From: a virus
Strand: one strand, 5' to 3'
IMG/VR virus record: IMGVR_UViG_3300021335_000003
DNA: 64,000 nt
Shown here: in pieces, positions 29,701 through 47,085 of the stretch
How the letters are laid out: every line of letters begins with the position of its first letter
Position numbering within the stretch: the stretch's first letter is position 1
The notes under the pieces: model-generated
What the model was told of the DNA's origin: nothing
Seen by the model: the letters and a program-made list of their open reading frames with translations, nothing else
Databases searched by the model: none
Position numbers and translations under genes: made by a program

Positions 29701-32700
29701 TGTGGTAGAGCGTTATAGTCTGTACCCGAACCTGCATATTCCCAAGTGTGTGCAGATGAGTTAACAACCGATGGTCGGTGGAACCAACACTGGTTCTCAG
29801 GCAAGTTAATTAAATTAGATAGACTGCTACTACCGTCTGTAGCTGTAACACTAAATGTTGCAGTACCTAAGTTTGTACGAGAAATTGCTTCATTAACACC
29901 GATAGTTGTGTTTGGTACACTTGCGTGGTCTGAATCAATTGTACTTGTTTCATCAAATTGAATACGTAGCAAGCTCTGTCCAACAGCAACTTCTTCGATA
30001 CTCACAACTAGTAATCTGTCTCTTGGTTCCCAACTGTGAACAATAGCACTGTTGTTTTGTGCGCCTGTAGTGCCTGTAATAGCTCTACCAGGAACAAACT
30101 CAAATCCTTCTGATCCAGATTCTAATTCTAGTTGTTGATATGTTGTATGACTGCTTAATATTTCTTCAACATAAAATTCAATAACACCTGATAAGAATTT
30201 ATGTGTTCCTGTGCTTGTACCGATAATATTAACACCAAAATCTAAGCTGTCGTCAAAAGCTAATCTAAATTCATCTTCACTGATCAAATTAATATAATAT
30301 TGTTGTTCAGGATCTAAACCTTGAATTGGCGTATTGCCATTTGGATCATAGATAACTTTTTGTCCATTTGTGAATCCATGTCCTATAATTGTAATAATAT
30401 CTGTAGCTGCATTTACTGCTGTTACACCATCAAATGTAGTTTCAGTTGGTGTTGTTTTAAAGTCGTTTGTAATATCACCTTCTGAACTAACTTCAGTTGG
30501 ATCTGGCAAGTCCAATGGATCATTAATAATTGTAGTTACAATATCAAAACGTGATCCAGCAAAATCTTGTGTAGCAGCACTCAAACTTGAAATATATGTC
30601 AGTGCTTCTACTTTTGCTTGATCAATTGCAGCTATAGTTTGCAATTCTTGTCCACTAATTGTAAGTTGTGTACTGTCCTGCAAGTTACGTGTGTAATATG
30701 CTAGGCCAGCACTACGTGAATATCTGTTACCTGTGTCCCATGTGTCTTTTGCAACAGCTTCAACAATAAGTTGTGTGTCTCTATTACATTTAGACTCATC
30801 ATATGTAAATCCATACCAAATGTTTGCTTGAATTTGTTCATTGATATATTGTGTAACGTTTTGTGCAATGTTGATACGACCTTCTTCGTCAAGTTCGTTG
30901 TAAGCACTATATTCTGCATTACTGTTAACCCAAGTTAAGTCGGGCTCGATCCTTGTAGGTGCAGTTGCACCTTCGCTTTGAATATAATCTATAATTTCTT
31001 GTACTCTATCGCCTGCGTCATCGCTGGCATCTGTGCTACCTGCTGATGCTGCAACGTTTTGTGTTTCAGGGTTACCAGAGCTAACACTAACAGGTGTTGT
31101 TAAAATTACTTCTTGGATAACTGTTTTTAATCTTTCATATGCAGCAACAGTTTCTTCTAACTGTCCGGCACCGTATTGTTGCACTCCATCTACAAAGTAT
31201 GCAAGTGCTGCAATTGTAGTTTGTAAGTTACCACCATATGTTAAATCATATACAAGTGCATCAACAATTAATCCTGTGTCTCTTTCACATTTGTCTTCGT
31301 TGTAAACAAAACCTGTGCTAAACGGATCGATACCTGCACCAACTTGTGTTCCAATCCAAGCAGTGATTTCTTTTTGTATAAACAGTTTGTTGTTCAACAA
31401 TTGTGTTACTGCATTTGCATAACCAGAATCGCTTGCGTTTCCTGTGCCGCCTGTTGGAATTGGTCTAGTGTAAGCATCTGCTACTGCATCACCTGGTACA
31501 GTATTTGCATCACCATTTGTGATAATGTCAATAATTTCATCCCACAGTGCATTTGATCTACTTGTTGCAGTTGCATCACTTAGATAGTTTGCTGTGAGTG
31601 TTTTTGCTTGACCAAATGCTGCAATGTGCTGATCTTTCTGTGCAGCAAAAGTATCAGTATCAAAACTTCCGCTGAAGTAACGTAGTGCAGCACTCACTGT
31701 TCTATAGTTTGAGTTGAAGATGATATCGTATCTAATTGCATCTAGCAAGTCTCTAGTATCTCTACGACACTTGTCTTCGTTGTAAGTAAAGCCTGCCCAT
31801 ATGCTTGGAGTTGCTGCACTGATTTGTGCGTTGATCCAAGTTACTGTGTCGGCGGCAATCAAGTCCTTGTTAGAAATTAACAAGTCGTGTGCTGTTTTAT
31901 AATCTGGTTCTCTAAAACGTAAAACAAATTCTTCAACAGGTGCATCACGATTGATACCTACAATACTGATTGTTTGTTTACCATCAGAAATACCTGTTGC
32001 TGTAACAAAACTTCTGTCAAACGCAAATGCTTTTGGAGAGAAACCTGAACTTCGCAGAGCATACAAACCAAAGTTTGTAGCAGAGTTGGTAATTGAACAA
32101 TATCCGCCTGACTGACAATAAACACCGTTGAGCAGGAAGATTTCAAAACAAGACACGATCTGTGCATAAGCATCGTTGGTTAGTCGCCACGCTGTACCAC
32201 CAAATGATAGAATAGTAAAGGCGTTAGCAACCATTGATTTACCTTGTTCAGGTATCGCACCAACAACTGGATTCTCAGCCTCAATACCGTATGTCGGAAC
32301 GTTGGGAGATTCAACTTTACTACCATCAATCTTAGCACCGTTCATACCTAAGAACGAAATGATCGAAGCGTTCTGAATATATGGTGAAGTAACAATAGTT
32401 GGTCTTGTGTTAGGTAAGTTTGTGTAATCAGCTCTGTCTGTAATAATTGGATCGAACGGATCATCAAATGCCACTGCGTAGTCAGCTGTAATAGTTGGAA
32501 TAAAGTTGTCATCAACGCCGTCACGGAAAGTAAATTCACCAAAGTAACATGCGTTACGAACACGTAGAATATCCAAGTTAGCGTTTGCAGGACGAATAAT
32601 ACAACCACGCAAACCGTCGCCTTTGATAACTGTGTTATCTGGAACAATAACTGGGTTGTCTTCTGTATAGTCACCAACCGCAACTTTGATGTTTACACGT

Positions 32701-33317
32701 TTAAAGTTAATTGTGCCATCACTGTTGTAAACTAGTCCAGAAGCAATTTGACAGGCTCTTTTAACAGTTTTAACCGGAGCACTCTGTCCATCGTTATCAT
32801 CATCACCTTGTTCTTGTGAAACATAAACCACGTTACCACCAAAGATATCCGAGTCTTGGAAGAATAATTGACCATTGCCATCTGTCGCTAAGATTTGACC
32901 TACGGTACCTTGTGACGGAGGCAATGTCAAGTTGTACCCTGCATCTAGTGTGTCTGGTGCTTTAATTGCCACACCGTCATCACCTGATGCTGTAAGTTCT
33001 TTAAACGTTAGTGTTTTTGCATCTTCAATATCTAAGTCATTAAACAAGTTCATACCTGCTGCTGTAAATTGAGCAGTGTCTTGTTCATTTACTCTAATAT
33101 TAATTTCTGCTGCGGCACTATCACCTTTATCAGTAATAGCAATCTCGGTATCGTTATCAAAAATTCTTCTTGTAACATCTTGTACAGTGTTATCATCACG
33201 CAGTAGGAAGATTTTACCATCTGCTGTGTTGATTGCTAATTCGCCTGATTCTAGTTGAGATACTATCGGTTGCTTACCCGCGACCGCACTACGTTTATGT
33301 TTAATTCTTGTTGCCAT
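23772..33317 (-). CDS. Giant tail fibre protein (3181 aa) with C-terminal intramolecular chaperone (peptidase S74-like)
   Basis: N-term KRS...P....LESGELAINTADGKIF; KCxRD helical repeats; LDGxDSxxFLRSD fibre repeats; C-term YSDERLK...IGVSAQEVE.VLPE...V.YDKMVPVLIEAIKE coiled coil. Confidence 0.88.
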   Translation of the reverse strand: MATRIKHKRSAVAGKQPIVSQLESGELAINTADGKIFLLRDDNTVQDVTRRIFDNDTEIAITDKGDSAAAEINIRVNEQDTAQFTAAGMNLFNDLDIEDAKTLTFKELTASGDDGVAIKAPDTLDAGYNLTLPPSQGTVGQILATDGNGQLFFQDSDIFGGNVVYVSQEQGDDDNDGQSAPVKTVKRACQIASGLVYNSDGTINFKRVNIKVAVGDYTEDNPVIVPDNTVIKGDGLRGCIIRPANANLDILRVRNACYFGEFTFRDGVDDNFIPTITADYAVAFDDPFDPIITDRADYTNLPNTRPTIVTSPYIQNASIISFLGMNGAKIDGSKVESPNVPTYGIEAENPVVGAIPEQGKSMVANAFTILSFGGTAWRLTNDAYAQIVSCFEIFLLNGVYCQSGGYCSITNSATNFGLYALRSSGFSPKAFAFDRSFVTATGISDGKQTISIVGINRDAPVEEFVLRFREPDYKTAHDLLISNKDLIAADTVTWINAQISAATPSIWAGFTYNEDKCRRDTRDLLDAIRYDIIFNSNYRTVSAALRYFSGSFDTDTFAAQKDQHIAAFGQAKTLTANYLSDATATSRSNALWDEIIDIITNGDANTVPGDAVADAYTRPIPTGGTGNASDSGYANAVTQLLNNKLFIQKEITAWIGTQVGAGIDPFSTGFVYNEDKCERDTGLIVDALVYDLTYGGNLQTTIAALAYFVDGVQQYGAGQLEETVAAYERLKTVIQEVILTTPVSVSSGNPETQNVAASAGSTDASDDAGDRVQEIIDYIQSEGATAPTRIEPDLTWVNSNAEYSAYNELDEEGRINIAQNVTQYINEQIQANIWYGFTYDESKCNRDTQLIVEAVAKDTWDTGNRYSRSAGLAYYTRNLQDSTQLTISGQELQTIAAIDQAKVEALTYISSLSAATQDFAGSRFDIVTTIINDPLDLPDPTEVSSEGDITNDFKTTPTETTFDGVTAVNAATDIITIIGHGFTNGQKVIYDPNGNTPIQGLDPEQQYYINLISEDEFRLAFDDSLDFGVNIIGTSTGTHKFLSGVIEFYVEEILSSHTTYQQLELESGSEGFEFVPGRAITGTTGAQNNSAIVHSWEPRDRLLVVSIEEVAVGQSLLRIQFDETSTIDSDHASVPNTTIGVNEAISRTNLGTATFSVTATDGSSSLSNLINLPENQCWFHRPSVVNSSAHTWEYAGSGTDYNALPQNGGNTRAEYEQFEELPGRVYSSGTNELGDFKVGDFITAFNRTGNITFRNKVQVDELDALRLSLSDVAIEEISTSVNLGDDEIGGPSDARLPTQLSVRSFISNRLGGFVDKTVSTAAVPGAIVQLNTNGQLNADLIPATRQFTNTNTDGYQSRLEQVDDIPPIDLKAGDIATENYEQVELTLTGNITANDGDVITQPGVADAIGYAKGNYIASGNLLVVTIGGEWNDEDDSVGDPWEVSAGSLFVEGVDSGATIASKGPSTEIIDNWFLRSSNSSQFLNLDPTDDYTFTSVNITTIERNSDVATVTTDVAHNLQVANNVNIICSDESYNENGLVLSVPSSTTFTYANVDSADPTKASAAATGTVRTIVTSADGGAQGAVTEYVEGIAENLDNANLVNGSGYTPLLATKTYEAVPFQAKTGSGTGAKGNITITAGQITDVDITRGGSGYEVGDLLEVLASDVGGTGSGFEIEVTSVAKRAYVNILGGELFVASVTSIDFVEDNTAVATARDINLDDVITHNFLAGSTGGGGAVNYVDYRITIPNHGFGQGDPVSYDSLANTPIGGLLNEQVYYVKVIDVNTIELYEGFALLNQVEFSSTPANNNHNITRKTVNITDNSIVVENHGFTTGDAFRIETLEDGSTVNVLPTVSTGDAIDSGSRFFVGSVTDNSFTIHALRSDALNSINDLVTNAIDIISTGVGSAQVIKNNVQVNSVINTSSRLLDNWNTLAVTNIDAENIISGTISPSRLGASGVPNSDTALFGDSSYKTVVQSVKVANTTDNPITLTGSSLSGEFYGDPVNIGIANVDYDPLGTFSGLGVSRFLQSQFDVDTGGSGQVFIKDGVIDAGTLDGLDSAYFLNPSNLTSVVPVNKGGTALATYSIGDIIYAQSASTLNQLGIGRRNNFLKSNGTVPEWGTALDLAEGLDVGSAALTSKSTGAGRIYNENVTSLQIGGAATNVRLGNGDGPRDLFPFIASYEATVARDVAVNLESITQSTSEVTQNGVNEVIMTDTTGILAGMIVTGSTSIPSNTTVSGVTDDAIYLSNDTTGSILSATTLAFQYTPFTLGVLPGDTVNIGSSGVTNLDGTWIVSGATETATSFTIRTDNLVTALVTDIPAGTHTINNTLILKNETVVVGNAESSATPANGTIKGTDGFGTDVAGGNLTLEAGIGTGNATGGTFTVKTGETSTTSDLQQTSTVRLTIDTYGDTDITGYTDFTDTTAIKVPLGTTAQRPGEAGIRVPVTTGQIRFNSTDVAFEGYDGTAWATLGGVKDIDQDTFIRAETASGDDNDDLDFFTANVQRMQIDENGDLKFGDALDKVTIAFTTGNTTIAGDLVLTGDLTVNGTTTTLDTTTLIVEDKNIELGNVASPTDITANGGGITLLGDTNKTMLYNVTNAAWEFSESINVANTKVYRVNNSDVLSATTLGTGVVNSSLTTVGALAAGSIASSFGNIDIGTSTFTGNGSGLTTLNASELDSGTVDGARLGGNQTMAGVKTFSDTSAATNTTTGAVRVGGGMGVAGDLYAGSLNTADGSGIDNLSASNLDQGTVPNARITGTYSNLTGTGALDAGSISSNFGNIDIGTSTFTGNGSGLTNVDAETLDGIDSTSFLRSDTADTMSALLTIEFAGDEMLRLTDTSATGNPYMSFYQAGTRAAYIQYVDSGDRLRLYNDVSDDFVDIRSGQNGLKYNYDGTEYTVWHSGNDGAGSGLDADQLDGLSSGSFLRSDANDSFSGEISGAGSINITGNVTANLFTGDGSGLTGISADDANTLDGLDSTQFVRSDANDSVSGVITFSGSGQNRLNLRNTTNGGYVGITFSDQSSASQVGTMRYTHIDTQSLGGNEAFIFEGTEPTTVLYVDGQFKASSEITAYYSDERLKDFQGKVPNALDKIMSLNGYLFTENAKAKELGYNNDRVQIGVSAQEVEAVLPELIEKAPIQGEHDYKTVKYDKMVPVLIEAIKEQQKEIDELKAMVQKLLDK

Positions 33318-33423: not shown

Positions 33424-36400
33424 TTAAAAGCTACCACCGTCTAGTGTATCAGTCCAAACTGGAGTTGCGTCACTGTCACTTGTTACTGTTAGTACTTGAT
33501 AACTGACGCTTGCATCGCTAGTTCCTGCTGCATCAGTGACTTGTACTGGACTGTCTGCATTACCATACAAAATACCATCTTCAGTAAATTCACTTACACC
33601 TGTACCACCATACTGTACTTCAAGATCGTTATTTGTTAGTATTAGTGTTCCATCAACTGTTACGTCAATGTCAAATGTTGTGTTACCATTTACAGTGCCG
33701 CCTGTAAGTTTGTTTAGGTATCTGTTTTCAACATAAGTTGCAACTGCTTTCTGTGTTGGAGCAGTATTGAAGTCTTGAGTACCAATACTTGATACCAAGT
33801 TTGCGTTGTCACTAACCTCTTTTAGTTCAACACCAACTGGTACGCCGTCTCTAATAAATGGACCAACACTGGTTAGACCTGACAAGTCAATTTCATTAGC
33901 ATTCAGTGTAATAGCACCTGTTAGAGCATTAACACCAAAGAAGTTACCAACTCTAAAGTTACCAATTTGGTCCACTGTACCACCAGCAAACACTCTACCT
34001 TGATTACGTTCGATAATCTCTTGTTCTGGTATTGCTGTACCGCCAAAGAACGGAAGTGCATTGTAATCAACACCTGCACCCACATATTCAAAGGCATGAC
34101 CTGATGTACTAATTGTACTCACATTGTACAGAGCTGCTTTCTTATCAGTTGTAACACTTGTTAGTCCTGGGAAGATAGTAATTTCCGCTGTACCACCAAA
34201 TTCTGCATTTAGATCATCAATTGCTGATGTAACAATCGCTTCTTGATTACCTAGTATAATGTTTCTTTCACTATGATAAACTGCGCTTCCTAATTCGTGA
34301 TTGTGAGGAACTTCATGCCAACCTGTTGTTGTGTTTTCTAATACGCTTAGTGCAATTCTATCAACTAGTAGTTTGATATTATCGCCAACTGTGCTAGAAG
34401 CATCATCATTTGTTAAGAATACTTGGTTTTCAAAGTTTGCATAACTCTTAGTTACAGGATCATTGGCTGCAATTTGTTTCATAATTGTGCCGAGATAATA
34501 ATAGCTATATGCAGTTAAGTCACTTTGATTTGGATAATTTGTACCACTTAGATTGTTTAAGATTGCTCCGCTGTAATATGCAAGTCCTGCTCTACGTGAT
34601 TGTTTGTTACCACCGTACATGATATCATAAATTACTGCATCAATAATATATCCTGTATCACGCTTACACTTGTCTATGTTGTATTCAAATCCTAAAATAC
34701 TTTCGTTGATGTAGTCAATTGTACCTTGTTGGATATTTGCTTTTTGTGATAGCAAACCTGCTGCTGCTGATTTAGTTGATGCTGGAAGCCAACTGTAATC
34801 TGCTTCAATTTCGCCTGGAGTACCAACTAGTGTTTGATTATCTACTGCATCTTTTACAATACCAATCAAATCAACTGCAATTGTACTTTCAACACTTGTA
34901 CCATAATCGCCGCTTAGTACTTGGCTTTCGGTGTTGCCTGGCTGCGGTGTTACAGCAATACCTTGAATACAATCTTCTACCACATCTTGTAAGTGTGTGT
35001 ATGCATCTACTGTGATATCTTTTTGTTCATTTGGCAGATAATTAGTAGTTCCTAAGAAGTATGCTCTTGTTGCAATCAATGTTGCAATATTACCTGTGTA
35101 AAGCAAATCATAAACTATAGCATCAATAATCTGTCCTGTGTCTTCTTTACACTTGTCTTGATCATATGAGAATGCATTGTAAGTTGTTTCTAAGAATGTT
35201 ATTGTGCCATCTACAATAGTTGATTTTTGAGCTTGTAAATTATCAATTGCTGCCTGTGCTCCTGCACTTGCCCAAGTTGTATCTGGATATGTAATACTGC
35301 TTGGCAACTGATCGCTACCATTTTCAATTACATCCTGTATAATTTGTAGTAATGTTTCTGCTCTAGTTACTTCAGTTGCACTTGCTGCACCTGCTGTTGT
35401 ATCTTGAGTTTCGACTGTTTGCTCAGGATCTGCTACAACAACGTCTAATAGCACATCTCCTAGTAATGTTTTAACCCATCCTAATGCTTGTGCTGTTTCT
35501 GTTTGTTGTCCGCTAACTTGACTTGCAGTGCCAACATAATAACTTTGTGCAGCTGAGTATGTTGCTGCATTACCACCATAAAGAATATCATAAGTTAATG
35601 CATCTACAATATATTTTGTGTCTCTATTACACTTAGTTGCGTTAAATTCAAATGTTCTTGTGAAGGTAAAGTTAATATAGTCAATTACTAGGTTTTGGAA
35701 GTAACCTGTGTTGTTTGTTAAACTTGTGAAGTCATTTTGTAAAGTTGAACTTGTCCAAGAAATATCTGTGTCAATATCTGCAGGTAGTCCATCTAAGTTG
35801 CCTGCATTAATAACATCTTCTACAATTTGTATTAAGTTGTCTGCAACACCTGCTTCAATAGCACCTGCACTTGGTCTAGTTGTATCTTGCACAACTGTAA
35901 CCTGTTCAAGTGTTGAGTGTGGAGTACCTTGGATAACGTCTGATAAAACATTTGCAAGTTCTTGATACGCTGCCACTGTTGCCGCTTGTTGTCCTGCACC
36001 TAATTGACTTGTTGTGCCTACAAAATAGCTTTCAGCAGCTTGTTTAGTTGCCAAGTTACCTGGATATAGCAAGTCGTATGCAATAGCATCAACAATATAC
36101 TTTACGTCTCTAGCACACTTGTCTTCATCAAATACCAGTGAAAGATAATTGTTTGTAACAAATGCTGTTGTTTCTGCTGCAATGAAGTCTCTGTTTGCTT
36201 GCAAATGTTCTACAGCAACAGGTTTGTTAGCATTTATACCACTATCTGGATAAACAATCGTATCTGCGGCTGTGTCTGTGCTGGTTTCACCGTTTTCAAT
36301 AATATCAATAATTTCGTTAAAGCCTGCTCTAACTCTATTAACAAATAAACTTGATAAACGGAACATTTGTTCAATAATTTGATCACGCAAGTATTTTATA

Positions 36401-39400
36401 GCAAGAACAGTTTGCAAGTTTTGATCACTTAAAACATAACCACTATTTGCTCTTTGGTATGCTAATCCTGCTGTAACACTATTATAGTTTGTACCAATAG
36501 CACCATCATACGCAACTGCCTCTATCATAATGCCAACATCTCTACGACACTTAGCTTCATCGTATTCAAACGATTGGAAATTGTTAGCAATAAAGATACT
36601 GATGTTGGTTTGTACTAGCTCTTTGTTGCCCTTAATTGTGTTGTAGCCTTGGATTTTTTCCTGTGATGCATAAGTGATATTAGGAAGTTGTGTTGCTGGT
36701 AAATTGTCTAAATTACCGTTTGCAATTACTTGTGTAATAATATCAACTAATCCTTCAGCATCGTCAGCTTCTGTTGAGCTTGCTGGAGTGCCGCTTGTAT
36801 CTTGGAATGCGCCATTGCCTGCAGATTTTACAACAGGCTGTTCGATTAGGATATCTCCTACGATATCTCTAAGTCTATCATATGCACCAGCTGTAGCTGC
36901 TTCTTCACTAGGCGAACCTAGTTGGCTAACACCATCTACAAAATAACTGTTGGCTACTGTAATTGTTGCACTGTTACCACCATACAAAATGTCATGGCAT
37001 AATGCATCAACGATATAACCAACATCACGCTCACATTTTGCACTATCATATGATAAACTTGGGAAGTTTACCGCAATCCAAGCAATCACTTCTGATATAA
37101 TAAAGTTTTTATTTGCAATCAATTGATTTTTAGCTTCTACAGCATTTGTTGTTGGTAGTACACCGGGTGTTGGAAATAACAATGGATCTGCTGCATCGTC
37201 TGTGCTTAGATTACCGTTTTCTAAGATATCAATAACTTCGTCAACCGAAGCATTAACAAGTGGTTCAACTACATCTGTTAGTCCTAAAAGCACAAGTTGC
37301 TTTTTAAGTTCTCTCAAAGACGCACTTGTCTGAATTAATTGATTATCTTGTAAATTAGCATTACTTGCTCTTTGATATGCTAAGCCTGCTGTTACACTGT
37401 TGTAATTTGTTCCTAAAGTAAGGTCAAGTGCAACTGCATCCATTATCAAACCAATATCACGCTCACACTTGTCTCTATTGTATGAGAAGTTTTGATAGTT
37501 GTTCTGTATAAACGATACTGCTTCTGCTGCTAAGAAATCTCTGTTGGCTTGCAATTGATCTTTTGCTGCAATAGTTGCTGCTGTTGCACCAGTTGGATTA
37601 GTAAATGTCAAAGGATCAGCTGCTGTATCCGTGCTAACCACACCATTATTTAAAATATCAATTACTTCATCAAAGTTTGCTTCAACTGCTGTCTGTGTTG
37701 CAGTATCTCCTACTGTTGCAATGCTTGCTTCGCCTTTTGCATAAGATAATGCTGCGGCAGTTTCTGCTAATTGATCTGCAATAACTTTTGCGCTATTTGC
37801 ACGTTGATACGCTAAACCGTTTGTAACTGCATTATAGTTGGTGCCGAGTAGTGCATCATAACCAGCACCGTCGATAATGATACCTGTGTCTCTTTCACAC
37901 TTGGCTTGGTCATATGTGAAGTTATTGTTGTTGATATATGCTACAACATCCTCTTGTAAGAACGCTCTGTTTGCAACAACTTGTGCATGAGCATTAATTA
38001 ATTCTGTGCTTGCAGGACCCGGTGTAGGATACAAATTACCTTCACTTGGTTGTTGATCAAATTCAATTATGTTAAAGATGTCTTCAAATAAGTTAGTAAC
38101 TTTTGTTTGGAATATTGCACTTCCATTTGATGCTGCTACTGCAAGATCGCCAGCGTGTCTCAATGCAATGATAGTTGCTGGTCTTTGCTCTGTATTTAGG
38201 TAAGCAACGTTTGCTCTGCTATAACTTAATGCCGCTGTAATACTGTGATGGTTTGTATCAACTAGTGCATCTCGATAAACGGCATCAACTATATAACCTA
38301 CATCACGCTTACATTTTTCAACATCATAGGTTAAGGTAGGATTATTTGCTTTGTTGTAGTCAATAGCATCTTGTATGTAGTTTGGTACTTGTGAAAGCAC
38401 TTGATTGGCTGCATCAACTTGTGGAATTGGTTCATCGCTAATGTCTGGATATCTTTTGGTTGCTAGATTTGTTAATGTTTGTTCATTAATAATTAACTCT
38501 AAGTTTTGAATCAATGCATCTAATTCACTAGCTTCAACTTGTGTGGCTGTACCACTTGAAAAATCTTGTGATTCCACATTTCCTGTGGTTGCTGTAACAG
38601 TAAATCCTCTAACAATACGTTGTACAATAAATCTTACTCTTGCAAATGCATCTTCAATAATTGCAATTTGTGCAGTTGTAAAGCCACTCCATGTTACCGC
38701 ATTGAATATATATTTTGTTTCTTGTACTGTAGCAGTGTTGCCGCCATAAAGTATATCATATGATAGCGCATCAACTAGATTACTAACATAATCTTCCCAT
38801 TCAGCTTGATCATATTCTATTGTGCCACCGTTTAAATCAACGTATGCAACCCAGTCTGCAATTATAAAATCTTTGTTTGCTTGCAATTGATTTTTTGCAT
38901 CAACACCGTTTTGAGTAAATCCGCTATGTGTAGGATATAGACTAACAATACCTGTACTATCGCCGTCATCAACAACGTTTTTTAATGTGTTTATTGTTTC
39001 ATCAACTGCCGCTTGAGCAGGACCGTTTGCTGCAACAAAACTTAGATTTTTAAATTGTGTTCTAAGATATTCAAAACTAGATAACAACATGTCTCTAAAG
39101 CGAGGTCTGTATCTAAATTCTTGTGCTTGACGTACAACGTTGTGTGTTCCTCCGTGCGCAATATAGTATGACATTTCTGTTAATAATTGTGTCAAATCTT
39201 CTGTATATTGTGCTTGATTGTAACTTAATTCTGTAAATTGATCATTGATGTATGCACTTAACTCTTCGATAATAAAATCTCTATTGGCTAAAATATTGTC
39301 TTTTGCTTCGATTACTTCGCCGTCAATTGTGGTTAAATCGTTAAGTGTAGCAGCGTAGTCACTACCTAAATATTCTGTAGCACTACTGTCGCCTGCGTTT

Positions 39401-41016
39401 AATGTATCAACAATAACTGCAAATCTTTGATCAATTTCTTCTTTGAGAGCAAGATTTGTAGTTAATGCTTTCATTTCGTCTCGTGTTGCTTCAATACCGT
39501 AAATAGTAGGAGCCAACTGATCTAAAATAACTTTTCTACTTGTGCTACGCAAATAGCTTGTTGCTGCGGCTGTACTTTGATAATATGTGCCAAACACAAT
39601 ATCACTAGTTACAGCATCAATAATTCTGCGCACGTCTCTTTTACAGGTTTCAACATTATATGTAAAAGGATTTTCTGTAATTTCGTTAGCAGTGATGTAA
39701 TAATATGTTTCGTCGCCTTCAAATTTGATAATACTACCAGTTTGCGGTTTGTCTCTCAAACTTGCAAGTTCAATACTGCTATTAGTTGATAGATTAACAT
39801 CAGCAGTAGCATCAACACTTGCACCGCCGCCAGTGAATCTAACCTGTGGAATTTCGGTATATCCACTACCTTGATTGTCAATAGTGACAGCACTAACTGT
39901 TCCTGTTGTGATGTCAATTTGTGCAGTACCTTGTGCAGTTACACCGCCTGCACCAAGTGGTGGATCAAATGTAACAGTTGGTGCGCTGGTATAACCAATA
40001 CCCGGAAAATCCATAGTAACACTTGCTACTTTTGAGAAATAATCTTGTGTTGGAACAGCTTCAGTGTATGCAATTGGATAGAAGCCATCTGCTACAACAC
40101 CTTCTGTACCAAAGTCACTAACTGAGTTTGAAATACTTAGGTAACCACCTTTGGTAGTTAGGAAACCTACGCTACAGAAAACTGAGAAGCAACTAACAAT
40201 CTGTGTATAACCAAAGTTTGTAATGTGGAAGCCAATACCACCTTGTGAAATCTGTGTAAATGCGTCTGCAACAAATGAGAATACAAGTGATGCAGGATCA
40301 TACTCGTCGCCATCAACAAGTATGCCGCCGCCTCCGCCTGTTAGATTAACTTGTTTTTCAACAGGAAGATCTGGATAGTCTGCAACTTGTAAAGGTCTTG
40401 CACCTGGTTCGATACCTTCAATTTGAACTGTTTCAAATGGTGTAAATTCAGTACCGTCATTCAACCAAGGACCGTTCATGTTAGTACAGTTTTGTACGTA
40501 CGGTGATGTTGTAACAAGTGCGCCTGGACGGATTCTTGCACACCAACCCGGATAACGTAGTCCTCTAAATGTCATTTGGAATAGATAACAACCGTTGCCC
40601 ATAAAGAACAAATCATCTGTATTGTTCTTAGGAAAAATTCTTGTGTTACGTAATTCGCCTTGTCCTGAAACAGTCACAAAGTCTCTAAGTGTAATAGGGT
40701 TATCTTCAACGTAATCACCAGGTGCAACAACAATTAAACTACCTTCAGGTGCTACTTCTGCTGCTTTTTTAATACTAGCAAACGCTCCGTTAGCATCTTG
40801 ACTTCGGCCGTCATTGTTATCACTGCCTTCTTCAGTAACATAATAAATGTTCTGTGTCTTTGGACCTGATGTACTACCATCAACAACAACGTCTGCGTCA
40901 ATTCTAAATTGTTTGCCTTCGTCGAGATTCATTTCTATATTGCCATCTGCGGTCAATATAAAAGTATTGTCTCCTACTTTCCTTTGATGTAATGACTGTC
41001 TCTTTATAAAACTCAT
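33424..41016 (-). CDS. Giant virion structural protein (2530 aa) with many Y(D/N)xxKCxRDxGxIIDAxxYD repeats
   Basis: Repeats visible in translation; shares SPY.QN, AFT, QIVSCF and H.(F/W)EY.G.G.DYNALP blocks with the 3181-aa protein. Confidence 0.8.
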   Translation of the reverse strand: MSFIKRQSLHQRKVGDNTFILTADGNIEMNLDEGKQFRIDADVVVDGSTSGPKTQNIYYVTEEGSDNNDGRSQDANGAFASIKKAAEVAPEGSLIVVAPGDYVEDNPITLRDFVTVSGQGELRNTRIFPKNNTDDLFFMGNGCYLFQMTFRGLRYPGWCARIRPGALVTTSPYVQNCTNMNGPWLNDGTEFTPFETVQIEGIEPGARPLQVADYPDLPVEKQVNLTGGGGGILVDGDEYDPASLVFSFVADAFTQISQGGIGFHITNFGYTQIVSCFSVFCSVGFLTTKGGYLSISNSVSDFGTEGVVADGFYPIAYTEAVPTQDYFSKVASVTMDFPGIGYTSAPTVTFDPPLGAGGVTAQGTAQIDITTGTVSAVTIDNQGSGYTEIPQVRFTGGGASVDATADVNLSTNSSIELASLRDKPQTGSIIKFEGDETYYYITANEITENPFTYNVETCKRDVRRIIDAVTSDIVFGTYYQSTAAATSYLRSTSRKVILDQLAPTIYGIEATRDEMKALTTNLALKEEIDQRFAVIVDTLNAGDSSATEYLGSDYAATLNDLTTIDGEVIEAKDNILANRDFIIEELSAYINDQFTELSYNQAQYTEDLTQLLTEMSYYIAHGGTHNVVRQAQEFRYRPRFRDMLLSSFEYLRTQFKNLSFVAANGPAQAAVDETINTLKNVVDDGDSTGIVSLYPTHSGFTQNGVDAKNQLQANKDFIIADWVAYVDLNGGTIEYDQAEWEDYVSNLVDALSYDILYGGNTATVQETKYIFNAVTWSGFTTAQIAIIEDAFARVRFIVQRIVRGFTVTATTGNVESQDFSSGTATQVEASELDALIQNLELIINEQTLTNLATKRYPDISDEPIPQVDAANQVLSQVPNYIQDAIDYNKANNPTLTYDVEKCKRDVGYIVDAVYRDALVDTNHHSITAALSYSRANVAYLNTEQRPATIIALRHAGDLAVAASNGSAIFQTKVTNLFEDIFNIIEFDQQPSEGNLYPTPGPASTELINAHAQVVANRAFLQEDVVAYINNNNFTYDQAKCERDTGIIIDGAGYDALLGTNYNAVTNGLAYQRANSAKVIADQLAETAAALSYAKGEASIATVGDTATQTAVEANFDEVIDILNNGVVSTDTAADPLTFTNPTGATAATIAAKDQLQANRDFLAAEAVSFIQNNYQNFSYNRDKCERDIGLIMDAVALDLTLGTNYNSVTAGLAYQRASNANLQDNQLIQTSASLRELKKQLVLLGLTDVVEPLVNASVDEVIDILENGNLSTDDAADPLLFPTPGVLPTTNAVEAKNQLIANKNFIISEVIAWIAVNFPSLSYDSAKCERDVGYIVDALCHDILYGGNSATITVANSYFVDGVSQLGSPSEEAATAGAYDRLRDIVGDILIEQPVVKSAGNGAFQDTSGTPASSTEADDAEGLVDIITQVIANGNLDNLPATQLPNITYASQEKIQGYNTIKGNKELVQTNISIFIANNFQSFEYDEAKCRRDVGIMIEAVAYDGAIGTNYNSVTAGLAYQRANSGYVLSDQNLQTVLAIKYLRDQIIEQMFRLSSLFVNRVRAGFNEIIDIIENGETSTDTAADTIVYPDSGINANKPVAVEHLQANRDFIAAETTAFVTNNYLSLVFDEDKCARDVKYIVDAIAYDLLYPGNLATKQAAESYFVGTTSQLGAGQQAATVAAYQELANVLSDVIQGTPHSTLEQVTVVQDTTRPSAGAIEAGVADNLIQIVEDVINAGNLDGLPADIDTDISWTSSTLQNDFTSLTNNTGYFQNLVIDYINFTFTRTFEFNATKCNRDTKYIVDALTYDILYGGNAATYSAAQSYYVGTASQVSGQQTETAQALGWVKTLLGDVLLDVVVADPEQTVETQDTTAGAASATEVTRAETLLQIIQDVIENGSDQLPSSITYPDTTWASAGAQAAIDNLQAQKSTIVDGTITFLETTYNAFSYDQDKCKEDTGQIIDAIVYDLLYTGNIATLIATRAYFLGTTNYLPNEQKDITVDAYTHLQDVVEDCIQGIAVTPQPGNTESQVLSGDYGTSVESTIAVDLIGIVKDAVDNQTLVGTPGEIEADYSWLPASTKSAAAGLLSQKANIQQGTIDYINESILGFEYNIDKCKRDTGYIIDAVIYDIMYGGNKQSRRAGLAYYSGAILNNLSGTNYPNQSDLTAYSYYYLGTIMKQIAANDPVTKSYANFENQVFLTNDDASSTVGDNIKLLVDRIALSVLENTTTGWHEVPHNHELGSAVYHSERNIILGNQEAIVTSAIDDLNAEFGGTAEITIFPGLTSVTTDKKAALYNVSTISTSGHAFEYVGAGVDYNALPFFGGTAIPEQEIIERNQGRVFAGGTVDQIGNFRVGNFFGVNALTGAITLNANEIDLSGLTSVGPFIRDGVPVGVELKEVSDNANLVSSIGTQDFNTAPTQKAVATYVENRYLNKLTGGTVNGNTTFDIDVTVDGTLILTNNDLEVQYGGTGVSEFTEDGILYGNADSPVQVTDAAGTSDASVSYQVLTVTSDSDATPVWTDTLDGGSF

Positions 41017-42425: not shown

Positions 42426-42788
42426 TTAAATAGCTGTTAAACGTAAAACTGTATCGGTTGAATCGTCTTCTAAATCCCAAGTGTAACGATTGCTATCAAA
42501 ATCTACTGCTGTTCTGTTGAATAGTTTTTTGATAACTCTGCGCACTCCGCCGGCATCAAAACCTTCGATAACCATTTCGCCTGCTGCTACACTATCAGTT
42601 GCTTTGTTAACCAAACGGCAAACTGCTGTTGCTGTAGCACCGTTGTTTGACACTGTGAACTTGTTTGTTCCTCTTTGGTCTACAATGTATGCTTGCTCGT
42701 CAATACCGCCGCCAACATATGCACGTACTGTGATATTCGTTGCGTCAGCCGGATCTCCGAAATTTCTTTTATTTACTGGACGTCCCAT
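42426..42788 (-). CDS. Hypothetical late protein
   Basis: AAGGAG RBS; late box at 42874-42880. Confidence 0.7.
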   Translation of the reverse strand: MGRPVNKRNFGDPADATNITVRAYVGGGIDEQAYIVDQRGTNKFTVSNNGATATAVCRLVNKATDSVAAGEMVIEGFDAGGVRRVIKKLFNRTAVDFDSNRYTWDLEDDSTDTVLRLTAI

Positions 42789-42911
42789 TTGTTTCTCCTT
42801 TGTTACGTTCTAAGTAATACGCGGTTGGTCTTCCGCATAAGTCCTCATCTAGAGGTTCTCTCTATGACAATAGTATTTATCAAATTAAATAAAATGGGTT
42901 ATAATGTCCGT

Positions 42912-42944
42912 AAAAAAAGGCCTGCAATTATGTTGCAGACCTTT
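42912..42944 (-). terminator. Rho-independent terminator closing the candidate ncRNA
   Basis: Minus strand AAAGGTCTGCAA-cataa-TTGCAGGCCTTT followed by a T tract. Confidence 0.85.
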
Positions 42945-42954
42945 CTCTATTAAT

Positions 42955-43167
42955 GTGATAGGTAGGACTAAGGATTACCTACAAGTGCCGTGACATATCC
43001 TGTCTACATAACTAGCACAACCTCACAATAGAATGGTTAGTTCTACTTTCTCTGCAACGCCTTGTCTCCAAGGTCTTACAGCGCCACCATAGCGTGTGAG
43101 TCAAGTTAATGCCTATGTGAAGCATCGTTTCCTTGCACTATCTAACTCGGACCGTCGTCTTTGTTAT
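42955..43167 (-). ncRNA. Candidate stand-alone structured ncRNA (~215 nt), family unknown
   Basis: No ORF; own promoter and terminator; nested helices, a GAGA tetraloop and a possible loop-loop pairing. Confidence 0.7.
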
Positions 43168-43173
43168 GTACTT

Positions 43174-43201
43174 AATATAGCATATACAAAATAAAAGTCA
43201 A
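43174..43201 (-). promoter_or_regulatory. sigma70-type promoter for the candidate ncRNA
   Basis: TTGACT-16 nt-TATATT with extended -10 TG. Confidence 0.7.
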
Positions 43202-43206
43202 CCTCT

Positions 43207-43401
43207 TTATTCAACTTTTTTTAAATTTTCTGCATGTTTTCTGCCATTTTTTTCTACTGGTTCGTATTCAACTCTATCGCCCAATTTCAAATTATGTTCT
43301 TTTTTTCTGAACAAAACATCAGTCCTATTTTGTCCCCATTCGTCGGGACGTATTAATCCGTGAATACCAATAAATTTATAAACTTGTCCTGTGACTATCA
43401 T
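43207..43401 (-). CDS. Cold-shock-domain (CspA-like OB-fold) protein, divergent
   Basis: TGQVYKF...HGLIRPD...DVLF...LKLGDRVEYE......HAENL follows the CspA pattern (G.VKWF..GFI.PD..DVF...L..G..V.F....A.NV). Confidence 0.65.
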   Translation of the reverse strand: MIVTGQVYKFIGIHGLIRPDEWGQNRTDVLFRKKEHNLKLGDRVEYEPVEKNGRKHAENLKKVE

Positions 43402-44160: not shown

Positions 44161-45339
44161 TTATGAGAAGCTTAGGTTTGCTGCATTTGTCTGTAGGTCG
44201 ATTAGCGCCAAGTAGTCGGCTGCGTTACCTAGAGACGATGCTGTGTTTGATAGCTCAACATAACCATAACGTGTCATAAATGATACTGTTGGTTCGAATG
44301 TTGATGGATCAAGAACAACACCTGAAGACATTAGTGGGATGTATGGGCAGTAGAACGCTGCTGCGTCTGACTCGCTTGTACCTTTGTATCCAACTAGGAT
44401 GTCGTCGTTTGCTGCATATGTGTTTACATACACTTTCATTGCGCCATTCAATGTACCAACCATTTTTGTGTTTGTTGGTGCTTCAAATGTGCCTTCTGTT
44501 GTACGTGCAAATGCAGAAGTTGTTGCAGATTGTAGGATTGTCAATGTTGTTGGTGAAACAACTGCCCAGTTACCAGCACCGCGGCGAGTACGCTGAGCGA
44601 TTCTGTTTGCTGCACGGTTGACTAGAACTGCTAGAGCAGCATGTTCGTCACCTACGAATGTTGCAGTACCTGAAACAGCAGCTTGATTGTATGTATCTGA
44701 TGCTGTACCAGCTAGTGTTGTTAGAGATGCTAGGACCTCTTGGTCGATCTCTGCTGTGATTTCTTGAGCCAAAGCAGCCATAATTTCTGCTTCAACGTCA
44801 ATACCGTGCTGTGACTGAGCGTCTTGAGCAGCTTCAAAGGTCCAACGTGCTGATAGCTTACGTGTTTTCGCTTCTACAGTCTGTTTCAAGATCTGGATGC
44901 TTAGTCTGTTTCCAGCTTCACCTTCAAGTGCCGCAGTTGCGTCAGCTTTTGCTGTTGTAGCATTACCTGAATATGCTTCTGCGATTTTGAATGGTGATAG
45001 TGCTTCTTCACCAGCTACTGCGCCTGATGCGCCTGAGCCTGCTGTGTCGCTGTAGCGAACACGCAATGTGTGAATCTGACCAACTGGACCAGTCATTGGT
45101 TGTACACCAACTAGTTCGTTTGCAATAACTGTTGGCATAACACGTCTGATCACTGGAAGGATCACACGGTTAAGTGTTGCGATGTTACCGGCAGATGTAG
45201 CACCAGCAGTTGCAGTTTCAGCCAAATACTTGCGAGTATTTTCTAGCGTTGAAGCCATTACTGCTTTCTTATTGCCTTGTAGGCCTTCAAGAAGTGCGCT
45301 TTTTGTATCGTGCCAGCGACTTTCTAATAGTTCTGACAT
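44161..45339 (-). CDS. gp23: Major capsid protein (start reassigned to ATG 45339, MSELLE)
   Basis: VIRRVMP..IANELVGVQPMTGPVGQI, VEAKTRKL.ARWT.EAAQD, EITAEIDQE, FYCPYIPL, F.P...FMTRYG. Confidence 0.97.
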   Translation of the reverse strand: MSELLESRWHDTKSALLEGLQGNKKAVMASTLENTRKYLAETATAGATSAGNIATLNRVILPVIRRVMPTVIANELVGVQPMTGPVGQIHTLRVRYSDTAGSGASGAVAGEEALSPFKIAEAYSGNATTAKADATAALEGEAGNRLSIQILKQTVEAKTRKLSARWTFEAAQDAQSQHGIDVEAEIMAALAQEITAEIDQEVLASLTTLAGTASDTYNQAAVSGTATFVGDEHAALAVLVNRAANRIAQRTRRGAGNWAVVSPTTLTILQSATTSAFARTTEGTFEAPTNTKMVGTLNGAMKVYVNTYAANDDILVGYKGTSESDAAAFYCPYIPLMSSGVVLDPSTFEPTVSFMTRYGYVELSNTASSLGNAADYLALIDLQTNAANLSFS

Positions 45340-45352
45340 TGGTTTCTCCTCT

Positions 45353-46444
45353 TTATAGTCCAGCAAGACGTTTTAAATCAACTACATTGTGATCTACGTC
45401 TGCTTTGATGTCATTTGATTGGGTTCTGTTGCCTGTTACTTCTTTTGCCTCTGCTAATACTGCCTTTTGCTTCGCTGGACCTTTACCGTCAATAACTGCC
45501 GGTAGGTATTTGTCAAACGCAGAACGTAGTCTGTCTGTTTGAACTGATTCCAGTAAGTCTACCATAATTTCACGCTGGTCTTTGCTTAGTGGCGCAACCA
45601 TATCGCTAATTGTGTCTTTGCGTTTTGCACTTTCAGTGATCATTTTATTTTGATGTGCTTGTGCTTCTGCAAGTTTGATTGCTTTAGACGCTGCTTCTCT
45701 TGCTTCTGCTAGTTGTTTGTCTTTAGCACCAACAACTTTTAGAAGTTTTGAAGTTTCACTCTTCTCGTTTAGATATGAGTGTTGATATTCGTTTGCAAAT
45801 GCTTCGAATAGTTTGCGTCCAAAATCATTTTCACGTGCTTGATCGATATCTTCTTTAAGTGCTGAGATCTCTTTTTTAAGACCTTTAGCAACTGTTTCTG
45901 ATACCAACGCTGCACTTTTCTTAATAAAGTCTTGTTTAACTTTATCAACATGAGCTTTGCCTTCACGTACAAGACGTACTTTTGTTTCGGCAAGATCTTT
46001 TTTGTCTTCGTAAAACTCTGCAATTTCTTTTGCAAGTGACTCAACTACAAACTCTTCTAGTGCAACAAACTTGTCAGCCATTGCTTTTTGATCTGAGTGT
46101 AGTTCTTTGATTTCTTTTGCTAGTGTTTCACTAACAAATGATTTCATTAGATTTGCATTTTTACGCTGTGCAATAGCAAATTTAGCTTTTGCTTCTGCTA
46201 GTTGCTTGCGATCTTCTTGGAATTCTGCAATTTCTTCGCTAAGTTTTTCTGTCATCATAGCATCAATGGCTTCAACCATTGTTGTTTTATCATGCTCATA
46301 CTTTTTAGCAAATTCTTCACGTAGTTCCGCAGTCGCTTGTAGGCGATTTTCTTTCACCTTTGCGTTCCATGCTTCTTCTAGTTCTGAGCGCACTTCTTCT
46401 GATAGTGCTGAATTTTCGAAGAGTGATTTTAGTGCATCTAACAT
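45353..46444 (-). CDS. gp22: Prohead core scaffold protein
   Basis: Coiled-coil, Glu/Lys-rich; lies between protease and MCP. Confidence 0.85.
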   Translation of the reverse strand: MLDALKSLFENSALSEEVRSELEEAWNAKVKENRLQATAELREEFAKKYEHDKTTMVEAIDAMMTEKLSEEIAEFQEDRKQLAEAKAKFAIAQRKNANLMKSFVSETLAKEIKELHSDQKAMADKFVALEEFVVESLAKEIAEFYEDKKDLAETKVRLVREGKAHVDKVKQDFIKKSAALVSETVAKGLKKEISALKEDIDQARENDFGRKLFEAFANEYQHSYLNEKSETSKLLKVVGAKDKQLAEAREAASKAIKLAEAQAHQNKMITESAKRKDTISDMVAPLSKDQREIMVDLLESVQTDRLRSAFDKYLPAVIDGKGPAKQKAVLAEAKEVTGNRTQSNDIKADVDHNVVDLKRLAGL

Positions 46445-46461: not shown

Positions 46462-47085
46462 TTAGCGGAGTTTGTCTATTATATCTAATAGACTCTCTTT
46501 TAAGTATTTTTGTGCCTTTTTATCGCCTTGAACTTCCCTTGATGTTTGGAACGCCCTATAACCGCCTCTGCTATTCATAAGATGTTCGTATATCGGTGTT
46601 GGGTATGCGCCTGGCGCACTTGGTTGCGCCACAACGTCTACAGTGATAATTTCAAAATCTGATACTTCACCGTTACCGCTTTCGCTTACATTTCCACTAC
46701 CTCTCGATGAAACGCCTAGTTTAACACTGCTTTCAAGCATTGTTTTAACTAATTGTCCCATCGGAGTTGGTAGAATTTTTAATTTACCGTAACCGTTTGG
46801 GCCATCCATCCACATTTCTGTAATCATATGGCTTACACGGTCTAAGTTAATGTTTAGTCCATCTGGATGATCTACTTCACCTAACACTGAGTAGCCACCA
46901 CTAATTTGTTCGTTGAGTGTGGTGACAGCCCTGCCAATCTCGTTAACGGGATAAACACGCTGATTTGCGTTGCGTACTCCGCCTTGAATGCAAATACCTT
47001 TCATGTAAAGGTCTTTACCATCGTTGGCAGACTCAACAACCATTCTAGCTTGGTCGAAACTCAGATGTTCGTTTAGTAAATTCAT
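46462..47085 (-). CDS. gp21: Prohead protease
   Basis: N.N.RVYP, LGEVDHP, VSH.I, LGVSSRGSG, D.VAQPSAP.AY. Confidence 0.95.
   Translation of the reverse strand: MNLLNEHLSFDQARMVVESANDGKDLYMKGICIQGGVRNANQRVYPVNEIGRAVTTLNEQISGGYSVLGEVDHPDGLNINLDRVSHMITEMWMDGPNGYGKLKILPTPMGQLVKTMLESSVKLGVSSRGSGNVSESGNGEVSDFEIITVDVVAQPSAPGAYPTPIYEHLMNSRGGYRAFQTSREVQGDKKAQKYLKESLLDIIDKLR

Follow-up and report, generated by a model that had tools for sequence, protein, structure and literature searches.

Comparison with relatives points to a probable free-standing manA-family RNA gene in an uncultured, giant T4-like phage

The large 'ornate' RNAs ROOL, GOLLD and OLE are phage- or prophage-associated, free-standing RNAs of several hundred nucleotides that self-assemble by loop-loop contacts into dihedral assemblies, and cryo-EM work of 2024-2025 reportedly revealed them as RNA-only multimers. 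RNAs of the manA family differ from them in length (about 200 nt) and in forming pentamer-based closed shells, and no homology is implied. The cis-regulatory call made for manA in 2010 was based on its location in front of genes that are not homologous to one another, and no overlap with terminators was flagged (Weinberg et al. 2010, PMC2864571). In vitro, manA RNAs form RNA-only closed assemblies, namely a 60-subunit icosahedral cage, decamers and octamers, which are built from pentamers and joined through kissing loops between molecules, L5-L7' and L8-L9' (Ren et al. 2026, bioRxiv 10.64898/2026.07.01.735769). In that study, the L8-L9' kissing loop was found by cryo-EM in the 60-mer cage; the contacts of the Photobacterium-type decamer are L5-L7', L3-L8' and an L6 GNRA loop-receptor interaction. 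The 60-mer RNA, manA_A0F1 (Table S3 of the same preprint), has a GACG loop in its 5' hairpin, GUGGUG in L5, GAAA in L6, CAACCA in L7 and CUGU/ACAG in L8/L9. The preprint calls manA putative cis-regulatory, and offers no genomic or in vivo analysis.

The locus described here lies in a stretch of 64,000 nucleotides from IMG/VR virus record IMGVR_UViG_3300021335_000003, referred to below as the window, in the head-gene region of a T4-like phage. The neighbouring genes all lie on the minus strand and are, in order:

46462-47085, minus strand: prohead protease (Peptidase_S77), the first in order
after the prohead protease, minus strand: gene for a scaffold-like protein
44161-45366, minus strand: Gp23 major capsid protein (Pfam E 6e-101)
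between the capsid and 64-aa genes, minus strand: gene for a 232-aa protein
43207-43401, minus strand: 64-aa cold-shock-domain-like gene (Pfam CSD E 0.002, below the curated cut-off; Atlas 0.90 to CSD clusters)
3' of the RNA, minus strand: genes for proteins of 120, 351 and 110 aa, in that order
33424-41016 and 23772-33317, minus strand: giant ORFs past the 110-aa gene (2530 and 3181 aa)

In its capsid protein the phage shares 66-70% identity with three jumbo phages, PA5oct, Vibrio phage 2.275.O and Sinorhizobium phage Phosso. Among related IMG/VR contigs, lengths of 155-187 kb go with completeness ratings of 44-53%, which would correspond to genomes of roughly 350 kb. The phage is an uncultured, giant, T4-like virus with a PA5oct-resembling capsid protein, unlike the marine cyanophages and Photobacterium from which manA is known, and it comes from estuarine or freshwater-type samples, again unlike known manA. 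A blastn search of the locus against 50,697 phage records gave no match, and no manA was detected at E values up to 1 in the cultured capsid-protein relatives PA5oct, Vibrio phage 2.275.O and Sinorhizobium phage Phosso. The 64-aa gene ends just before the manA promoter and occupies the same position, at 42-86% protein identity, in eight further unique loci (L031, L039, L047, L048, L050, L051, L054 and L066); its product may be an RNA-binding partner of the RNA, or the arrangement may be plain synteny.

Between the 64-aa gene and the 120-aa gene, we identified the following features:

43174-43201, minus strand: sigma70-type promoter (-35 TTGACT at 43201-43196, 16-nt spacer, extended -10 TGcTATATT at 43182-43174)
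42952-43167, minus strand: manA-family RNA core (5' hairpin with GACG loop, closing helix P1, helices P2-P9)
43143-43166, minus strand: 5' hairpin (outer stem UAAC/GUUA, inner stem GAC/GUC, GACG loop at 43156-43153)
43085-43091, minus strand: loop L5, UAUGGUG, in which AUGGU is complementary to L7
43065-43068, minus strand: loop L6, GAGA (GNRA tetraloop), capping a long P6 (43081-43052)
43034-43040, minus strand: loop L7, CUAACCA, in which ACCAU is complementary to L5
42996-43001, minus strand: loop L8 region, AGGAUA, in which AGGAU is complementary to L9
42967-42977, minus strand: loop L9, UAAUCCUUAGU, in which AUCCU is complementary to L8
42912-42941, minus strand: intrinsic terminator (9-bp stem, 5-nt loop, U7), beginning about 16 nt past P1
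42874-42881, minus strand: likely late-promoter box GATAAATA of the downstream gene, between the manA terminator and the freshwater-2 leader
42786-42857, minus strand: freshwater-2 motif (RF02980; 51.6 bits, above the gathering score of 49.9)

The extended -10 element has its TG at 43182-43181 and TATATT at 43179-43174, and in a consensus scan the promoter scored 10/12 with the TG. A match of this quality is by itself at chance level (15 sites found versus 17 expected in a 7-kb scan); we judged the promoter to be real because relatives keep it at a fixed distance, where the background frequency is 0.2%. Transcription is predicted to start near A43167-A43169. The terminator consists of a GC-rich stem, 42941-42933 pairing with 42927-42919, and seven U at 42918-42912. 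The Rfam Thr_leader model aligns to this hairpin by its terminator part only, and Thr_leader, MicC and other weak Rfam matches were rejected as terminator or low-score similarity. The minus strand folds more stably than 200 of 200 dinucleotide shuffles (z = -4.0).

A previous sequence-only reading of this DNA had described a sigma70-type promoter, a structured RNA and a strong intrinsic terminator, and all three are present on the minus strand. It had also described the region between promoter and terminator as ORF-free, which is not strictly the case: ORFs of 37 aa (43125-43012) and 32 aa, and no others, lie inside it. Yet the ATG of the 37-aa ORF is kept in only 4 of 72 relatives among the matches listed, and substitutions are compensatory for helices; on these grounds a small-ORF reading was rejected. 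In the mechanism that we propose, host sigma70 RNA polymerase would initiate near 43167, transcribe the nine-helix RNA and be stopped by the intrinsic terminator near 42913, releasing a discrete RNA of about 250 nt. Both the transcript ends and the early timing are predictions from the DNA, and the suggestion that the RNA is made early follows from the sigma70-type promoter only.

The RNA had initially been described as not assignable to a family, a statement that no longer holds. Comparison with Rfam by cmscan, the check suggested at the time, gave a match to manA (RF01745) at 43161-42952 that spans the whole model (positions 1-192 of 192) with E = 2.8e-12 when 901 nt were searched and 2e-10 when the whole 64-kb window was, though its 52.0 bits are 3.2 bits under the Rfam gathering score of 55.2, which is a curated annotation threshold and not a structural feature. 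At gathering thresholds the region yields freshwater-2 only, and manA appears with E-value reporting. The long P6 and the interrupted 5' hairpin are the likely reasons why the window copy narrowly misses the threshold. We also looked for manA at the same upstream position in the 23 IMG/VR loci that encode relatives of the 120-aa protein. Same-site copies were found in L009 (89.3 bits; divergent, syntenic), L018 (60.8 bits; syntenic), L008 and L014 (55.5 and 55.4 bits; each 96-97% identical to the window RNA), L004 (43.8 bits) and L002 (34.3 bits). The full-length model match and same-site copies at 55.4-89.3 bits identify the RNA as manA.

The window RNA shares with the Rfam motif, which also occurs in T4-like phages, the nine-helix plan, the 5' hairpin and the closing P1, as well as a GUGGUG-type L5, an AACCA L7 and a UUG-NNGGUA...UCC-NNCC 3' hairpin. 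Conserved manA loop and junction sequences are present, as seen in the cmscan alignment and in the invariant columns of an alignment of relatives, namely UAUGGUG (L5), CUAACCA (L7) and UUGUAGGUAAUCCUUAGUCCUACC, as are the UUG ahead of P9 and the GGUA...UCC frame of L9. It differs from the Rfam family in its longer P6 and in a score just below the gathering threshold.

To sample relatives more broadly, we scanned IMG/VR with the pattern AGTGCAAGGAA-N-AACTTG, which returned at least 120 loci; 102 of the matches listed have the family spacing. Scan matches from this list and the 120-aa-protein loci were combined into a MAFFT alignment (A1) of 72 sequences less than 93% identical to one another. 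RNAalifold predicted 29 pairs from A1, 22 of them with compensatory changes, and a hand-drawn structure of 61 pairs exceeded 500 of 500 column shuffles on every measure. The sole slid control to approach the 61-pair structure was -1, a consequence of the window row being out of register by one column. This shift affects P4 and P8, so that per-helix percentages understate pairing and the RNAalifold table is cleaner. In the resulting structure P1 encloses P2/P3, a P4 three-hairpin domain (P5, P6 and P7), P8 and P9. Compensatory changes occur in P1, P3, P4, P5, P6, P7, P8 and P9 across the 72 relatives; P2 is invariant in the sampled subfamily. Both stems of the 5' hairpin covary in A1, and its GACG loop is shared with manA_A0F1 and with Photobacterium manA constructs.

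The helices that had been folded by hand in the sequence-only reading thus find support in the 72 relatives from RNAalifold and the column shuffles. GAUAG/CUAUC (which is P1), CAAG/CUUG and AUGCUU/AGGCAU are real helices, the invariance of P2 noted, and so are CUCACA/UGUGAG, CUGUAA..CCUUG-GAGA-CAAGG..UUGCAG, GUAGAA/UUCUAU, GUGC/GCAC with GACA/UGUC, and GUAGG/CCUAC. The proposed CGCUA/UGGCG helix survives in part: CGC/GCG is a stem, and the remainder belongs to loop L5.

An additional helix, absent from the Rfam manA model, was observed in several subgroups (for example in L035, L036, L018 and L019), where the 6-8 nt that open the transcript are paired to the tail just past P1. This helix, P0 (A1 columns 1-9 with 235-250), covaries at p 5e-4, with examples such as AUAAUGC/GCAUUAU, AUAUAGC/GCUAUAU and AUAAGC/GCUUAU. 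It was not found in the window's subgroup in A1.

Two pairs of loops covary as well. Among the 72 relatives, cognate L5 and L7 are more complementary than swapped pairs (p 2e-6), and the same is true of L8 and L9 (p 1.6e-7); the control pairings L5-L9 and L8-L7 were not significant in this test. Covariation of this kind fits intramolecular and intermolecular pairing alike. The tertiary pairing between AGGAU (43001-42997) and AUCCU (42975-42971) suggested from the single sequence is borne out by the L8-L9 result, whereas the suggested pairing of CUAAC with GUUAG fared poorly (p 0.03): the supported partner of the L7 ACCAU is the AUGGU of L5.

Compared with manA_A0F1, the window RNA has the same GACG loop, the same L5-L7 UGGU/ACCA and a GNRA L6, and its L8-L9 complementarity is AGGAU/AUCCU where manA_A0F1 has CUGU/ACAG. 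It combines a long P6 like that of the Photobacterium decamer type with L8-L9 complementarity like that of the 60-mer type, and because of this combination its stoichiometry is not predictable. Cage assembly was observed in vitro, with other manA sequences and in one preprint. Because L5-L7, L8-L9 and the GNRA L6, which are intermolecular contacts in other manA RNAs, are all kept, we propose that the window RNA most likely self-assembles into a multimer that would act in trans. The conserved manA loops, read as sites of RNA-RNA contact, fit the in vitro cages and not the riboswitch label.

The surroundings of manA were compared across loci. In 69 of the 90 untruncated relatives among the matches listed, the AGUGCAAGGAA block is preceded at 61-71 nt by a promoter of the form TTGAC-N16-19-TAnnnT; in equivalent windows of these loci the background frequency of the pattern is 0.0019. 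The spacer sequences differ among relatives. Eight further relatives among these matches have a variant -35 (TTGAT, TTGCT or TTGCA) with the same TGnTATATT. At the other end, a hairpin followed by a T-run is found at a fixed offset, 11-30 nt past P1, in 46 of 90 relatives (again among the matches listed). The terminator does not overlap the aptamer, as a riboswitch expression platform would; the terminator arms of a locus show no greater complementarity to its own aptamer, as an antiterminator would, than swapped arms do (p 0.62 and 0.12); and in the window, L008 and L014 one aptamer is followed by a different terminator stem each time.

The manA cassette is present or absent as a unit, and it is missing from L010, L022 and L023. 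Its history is mosaic: L001 and the window have leaders that are 100% identical and genes that are 95.6% identical, with RNAs that are 76% identical, while for L014 the corresponding values are 82.8% (leader), 70% (gene) and 96.8% (RNA). The genes downstream of manA belong to at least 21 unrelated families and do not form the coherent set expected of a riboswitch. Among the matches listed, the commonest is the 120-aa family (27 of 75 loci), followed by gp32 (12 loci, behind a TATAAATA box and without a terminator), a 304-aa family (6 loci), mannose-6-phosphate isomerase/cytidylyltransferase (3 loci) and Hsp20 (3 loci); rubrerythrin, radical SAM and other families also occur. The downstream neighbours already known for manA, mannose-6-phosphate isomerase, Hsp20/IbpA and gp32, therefore recur among the relatives here. 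In L078 the gene beyond manA is convergent with it and ends at its 3' end.

The commonest position of the cassette, in 30 of 85 unique loci among the matches listed, is just downstream of a gp23-family major capsid gene and its terminator, either directly behind it or after one small gene. A conserved, apparently non-coding stretch of about 200-250 nt separates manA from Hsp20 in L042, L117, L107, L080 and L096, and lies upstream in L078 and L123; it has a recurring GGGG-CCACGGTYA-CCCC hairpin and matches no Rfam family at gathering score. The manA-bearing phage contig L042 also carries a permuted tmRNA gene (RF04321, 118 bits) at 12888-13275.

Downstream of manA, the 120-aa gene appears to be served by signals of its own. 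The GATAAATA box occurs on the minus strand of the window at 42881, 33399, 23780, 16651, 11128, 10401, 7244, 3829 and 1683, and all nine sites are 4-86 nt upstream of minus-strand ORF starts; the two plus-strand sites in the window both fall within genes. This distribution suggests that GATAAATA is likely a late-promoter box, a variant of the T4 box TATAAATA. It is kept in all related loci with or without manA. About 17 nt past the box begins the freshwater-2 motif, which supplies the 120-aa gene (42788-42426) with its 5' leader, Shine-Dalgarno sequence and AUG included, and which is found in 23 of 23 loci related to that gene, whether manA is there or not. In L010, L022 and L023 the capsid-gene terminator is followed directly by the GATAAATA box and freshwater-2. 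In the window, the manA terminator and the GATAAATA box separate manA from the freshwater-2 leader and the gene, placing manA outside that gene's 5'-UTR. The late mRNA of the 120-aa gene would then start at its own GATAAATA promoter and carry its own freshwater-2 leader, without manA. The 120-aa protein has no match in Protein Atlas, Pfam or PHROGs. Freshwater-2, known mainly from metagenomes, thereby gains a biological source and a transcript context as the leader of a conserved late gene of giant T4-like phages.

Two variants of this site were observed. L009 has a glutamine riboswitch aptamer (RF01739, 49.7 bits, 2298-2345) before a small ORF directly upstream of the manA cassette, and so contains three RNA motifs in series: glnA, manA and freshwater-2. 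L019/L064, which are one contig, have a radical SAM/SPASM gene inserted after the manA terminator and ahead of the freshwater-2 leader, which indicates that the site takes up extra genes.

Other copies of manA lie among tRNA genes. In promoter-less cyanophage-like contigs, manA is situated within tRNA arrays: the L056 copy (58.5 bits, above the gathering score) occupies 3277-3472, between tRNA genes at 3187-3257 and 3480-3550, a tRNA-Met ends at the first base of manA in L052 and L060, and a tRNA-Gly begins at its last base in L038 and L057. L056 carries more than 20 tRNA genes; the window has none. Promoter plus terminator, promoter plus tRNA, and flanking tRNAs are layouts each of which would be predicted to release a discrete RNA. 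The tRNA cluster of phage T4 likewise encodes small stable RNAs, species 1 and 2 (rnaC and rnaD), that are co-transcribed with the tRNAs and processed out. They resemble the tRNA-flanked copies of L052, L056, L057 and L060 in layout, and unlike them the window copy has its own promoter and terminator.

Three other explanations of the locus have to be set against a free-standing RNA gene. manA could be the ligand-sensing aptamer of a riboswitch or attenuator leader whose expression platform is the terminator, in which case polymerases starting at the sigma70 promoter would read through in a ligand-dependent manner, and the 120-aa gene would be expressed early or conditionally besides its expression from the late promoter. 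The order promoter-aptamer-terminator-gene is the classic transcriptional layout, and manA is placed among candidate cis-regulatory riboswitches both by Rfam and by Weinberg et al. (2010, PMC2864571). Of the genes that follow manA, those of the 120-aa family are the most frequent (27 of the 75 loci, among the matches listed), and some relatives have arrangements compatible with cis-regulation: a Shine-Dalgarno sequence and AUG lie 10-20 nt past manA in L041, L049, L053, L082, L093, L094 and L109, and in L027 a mannose-6-phosphate isomerase gene directly follows the terminator. Location upstream of genes, on which alone the original call rested with no terminator overlap flagged, is however a weak criterion in phage genomes, where nearly all genes are co-oriented. 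The terminator is outside the aptamer, its cognate arms have no extra complementarity, and one aptamer occurs with different terminators just as one terminator occurs with different aptamers. The downstream gene keeps its own promoter and leader where manA is absent, the cassette is exchanged independently of its flanks, and copies exist between tRNA genes and before a convergent gene. Given these observations, we regard a riboswitch as unlikely, and its proposed control of the 120-aa gene with it.

The interval from the stop of the 64-aa gene (43207) to the RNA contains no terminator, and manA could therefore be included as a 3' tail in late read-through transcripts. The RNA might then be mainly a 3' element of the upstream late operon, made by read-through from the 232-aa and 64-aa genes, stabilising or terminating their mRNAs, with the manA terminator ending the operon and the promoter-like site incidental. 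Such an account, including the stabilising or terminating role, is very improbable in our view: the promoter is at a fixed distance in most relatives, and it is kept even behind a capsid gene that has a strong terminator of its own (L004, L008, L014 and L020). A phage RNA that is free-standing and highly structured and has a host-type promoter could also be a self-cleaving ribozyme, or a decoy or sponge for host defence or a host factor, and a decoy role is compatible with a monomer or with an assembled particle. Against these possibilities, the region matched no Rfam ribozyme family at E up to 10, a conserved cleavage-site signature was not seen, no defence gene was linked in the loci examined, and the conserved loops are accounted for by RNA-RNA contacts; we give this last group of explanations hardly any credence.

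Together, these comparisons favour a free-standing RNA gene over the 'cis-regulatory' label. With its family membership, structure, loop pairings, cassette architecture and independence from its flanks as documented above, the locus is probably a free-standing manA-family RNA gene that yields a discrete RNA of about 250 nt, independent of the mRNA of the next gene and likely acting in trans as a multimer. The window manA runs from promoter to terminator as a cassette and gives no sign of a cis-regulatory link, in contrast to its Rfam label, 'Cis-reg'. The sequence-only reading had taken the RNA for a discrete, stand-alone transcript with a host-type promoter and terminator and not for the leader of the next gene; conservation of the cassette and the separate downstream late promoter agree with it, and presence or absence as a unit, mosaic exchange and the copies between tRNA genes strengthen it further. 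A more speculative picture, rather unlikely as a whole, is that this would be an early, free-standing phage RNA that switches no gene and self-assembles in cells into RNA-only shells or rings serving as compartment, scaffold or decoy, perhaps assisted by the cold-shock-domain-like protein, and encoded by a mobile, swapped cassette that often lies behind the capsid gene.

Taken singly, the locus is an ordinary member of a known family, and its added value lies in the comparative evidence. Since 2010 manA has been listed as an orphan riboswitch candidate. This locus and its roughly 90 relatives argue that in one large phage group manA is a gene of its own, with its own promoter, often with its own terminator or tRNA flanks, and exchanged as a cassette. 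They turn the search for its function away from ligand sensing and towards an RNA that acts in trans and is probably multimeric, for which the locus provides a defined, predicted natural transcript suited to tests in vivo.
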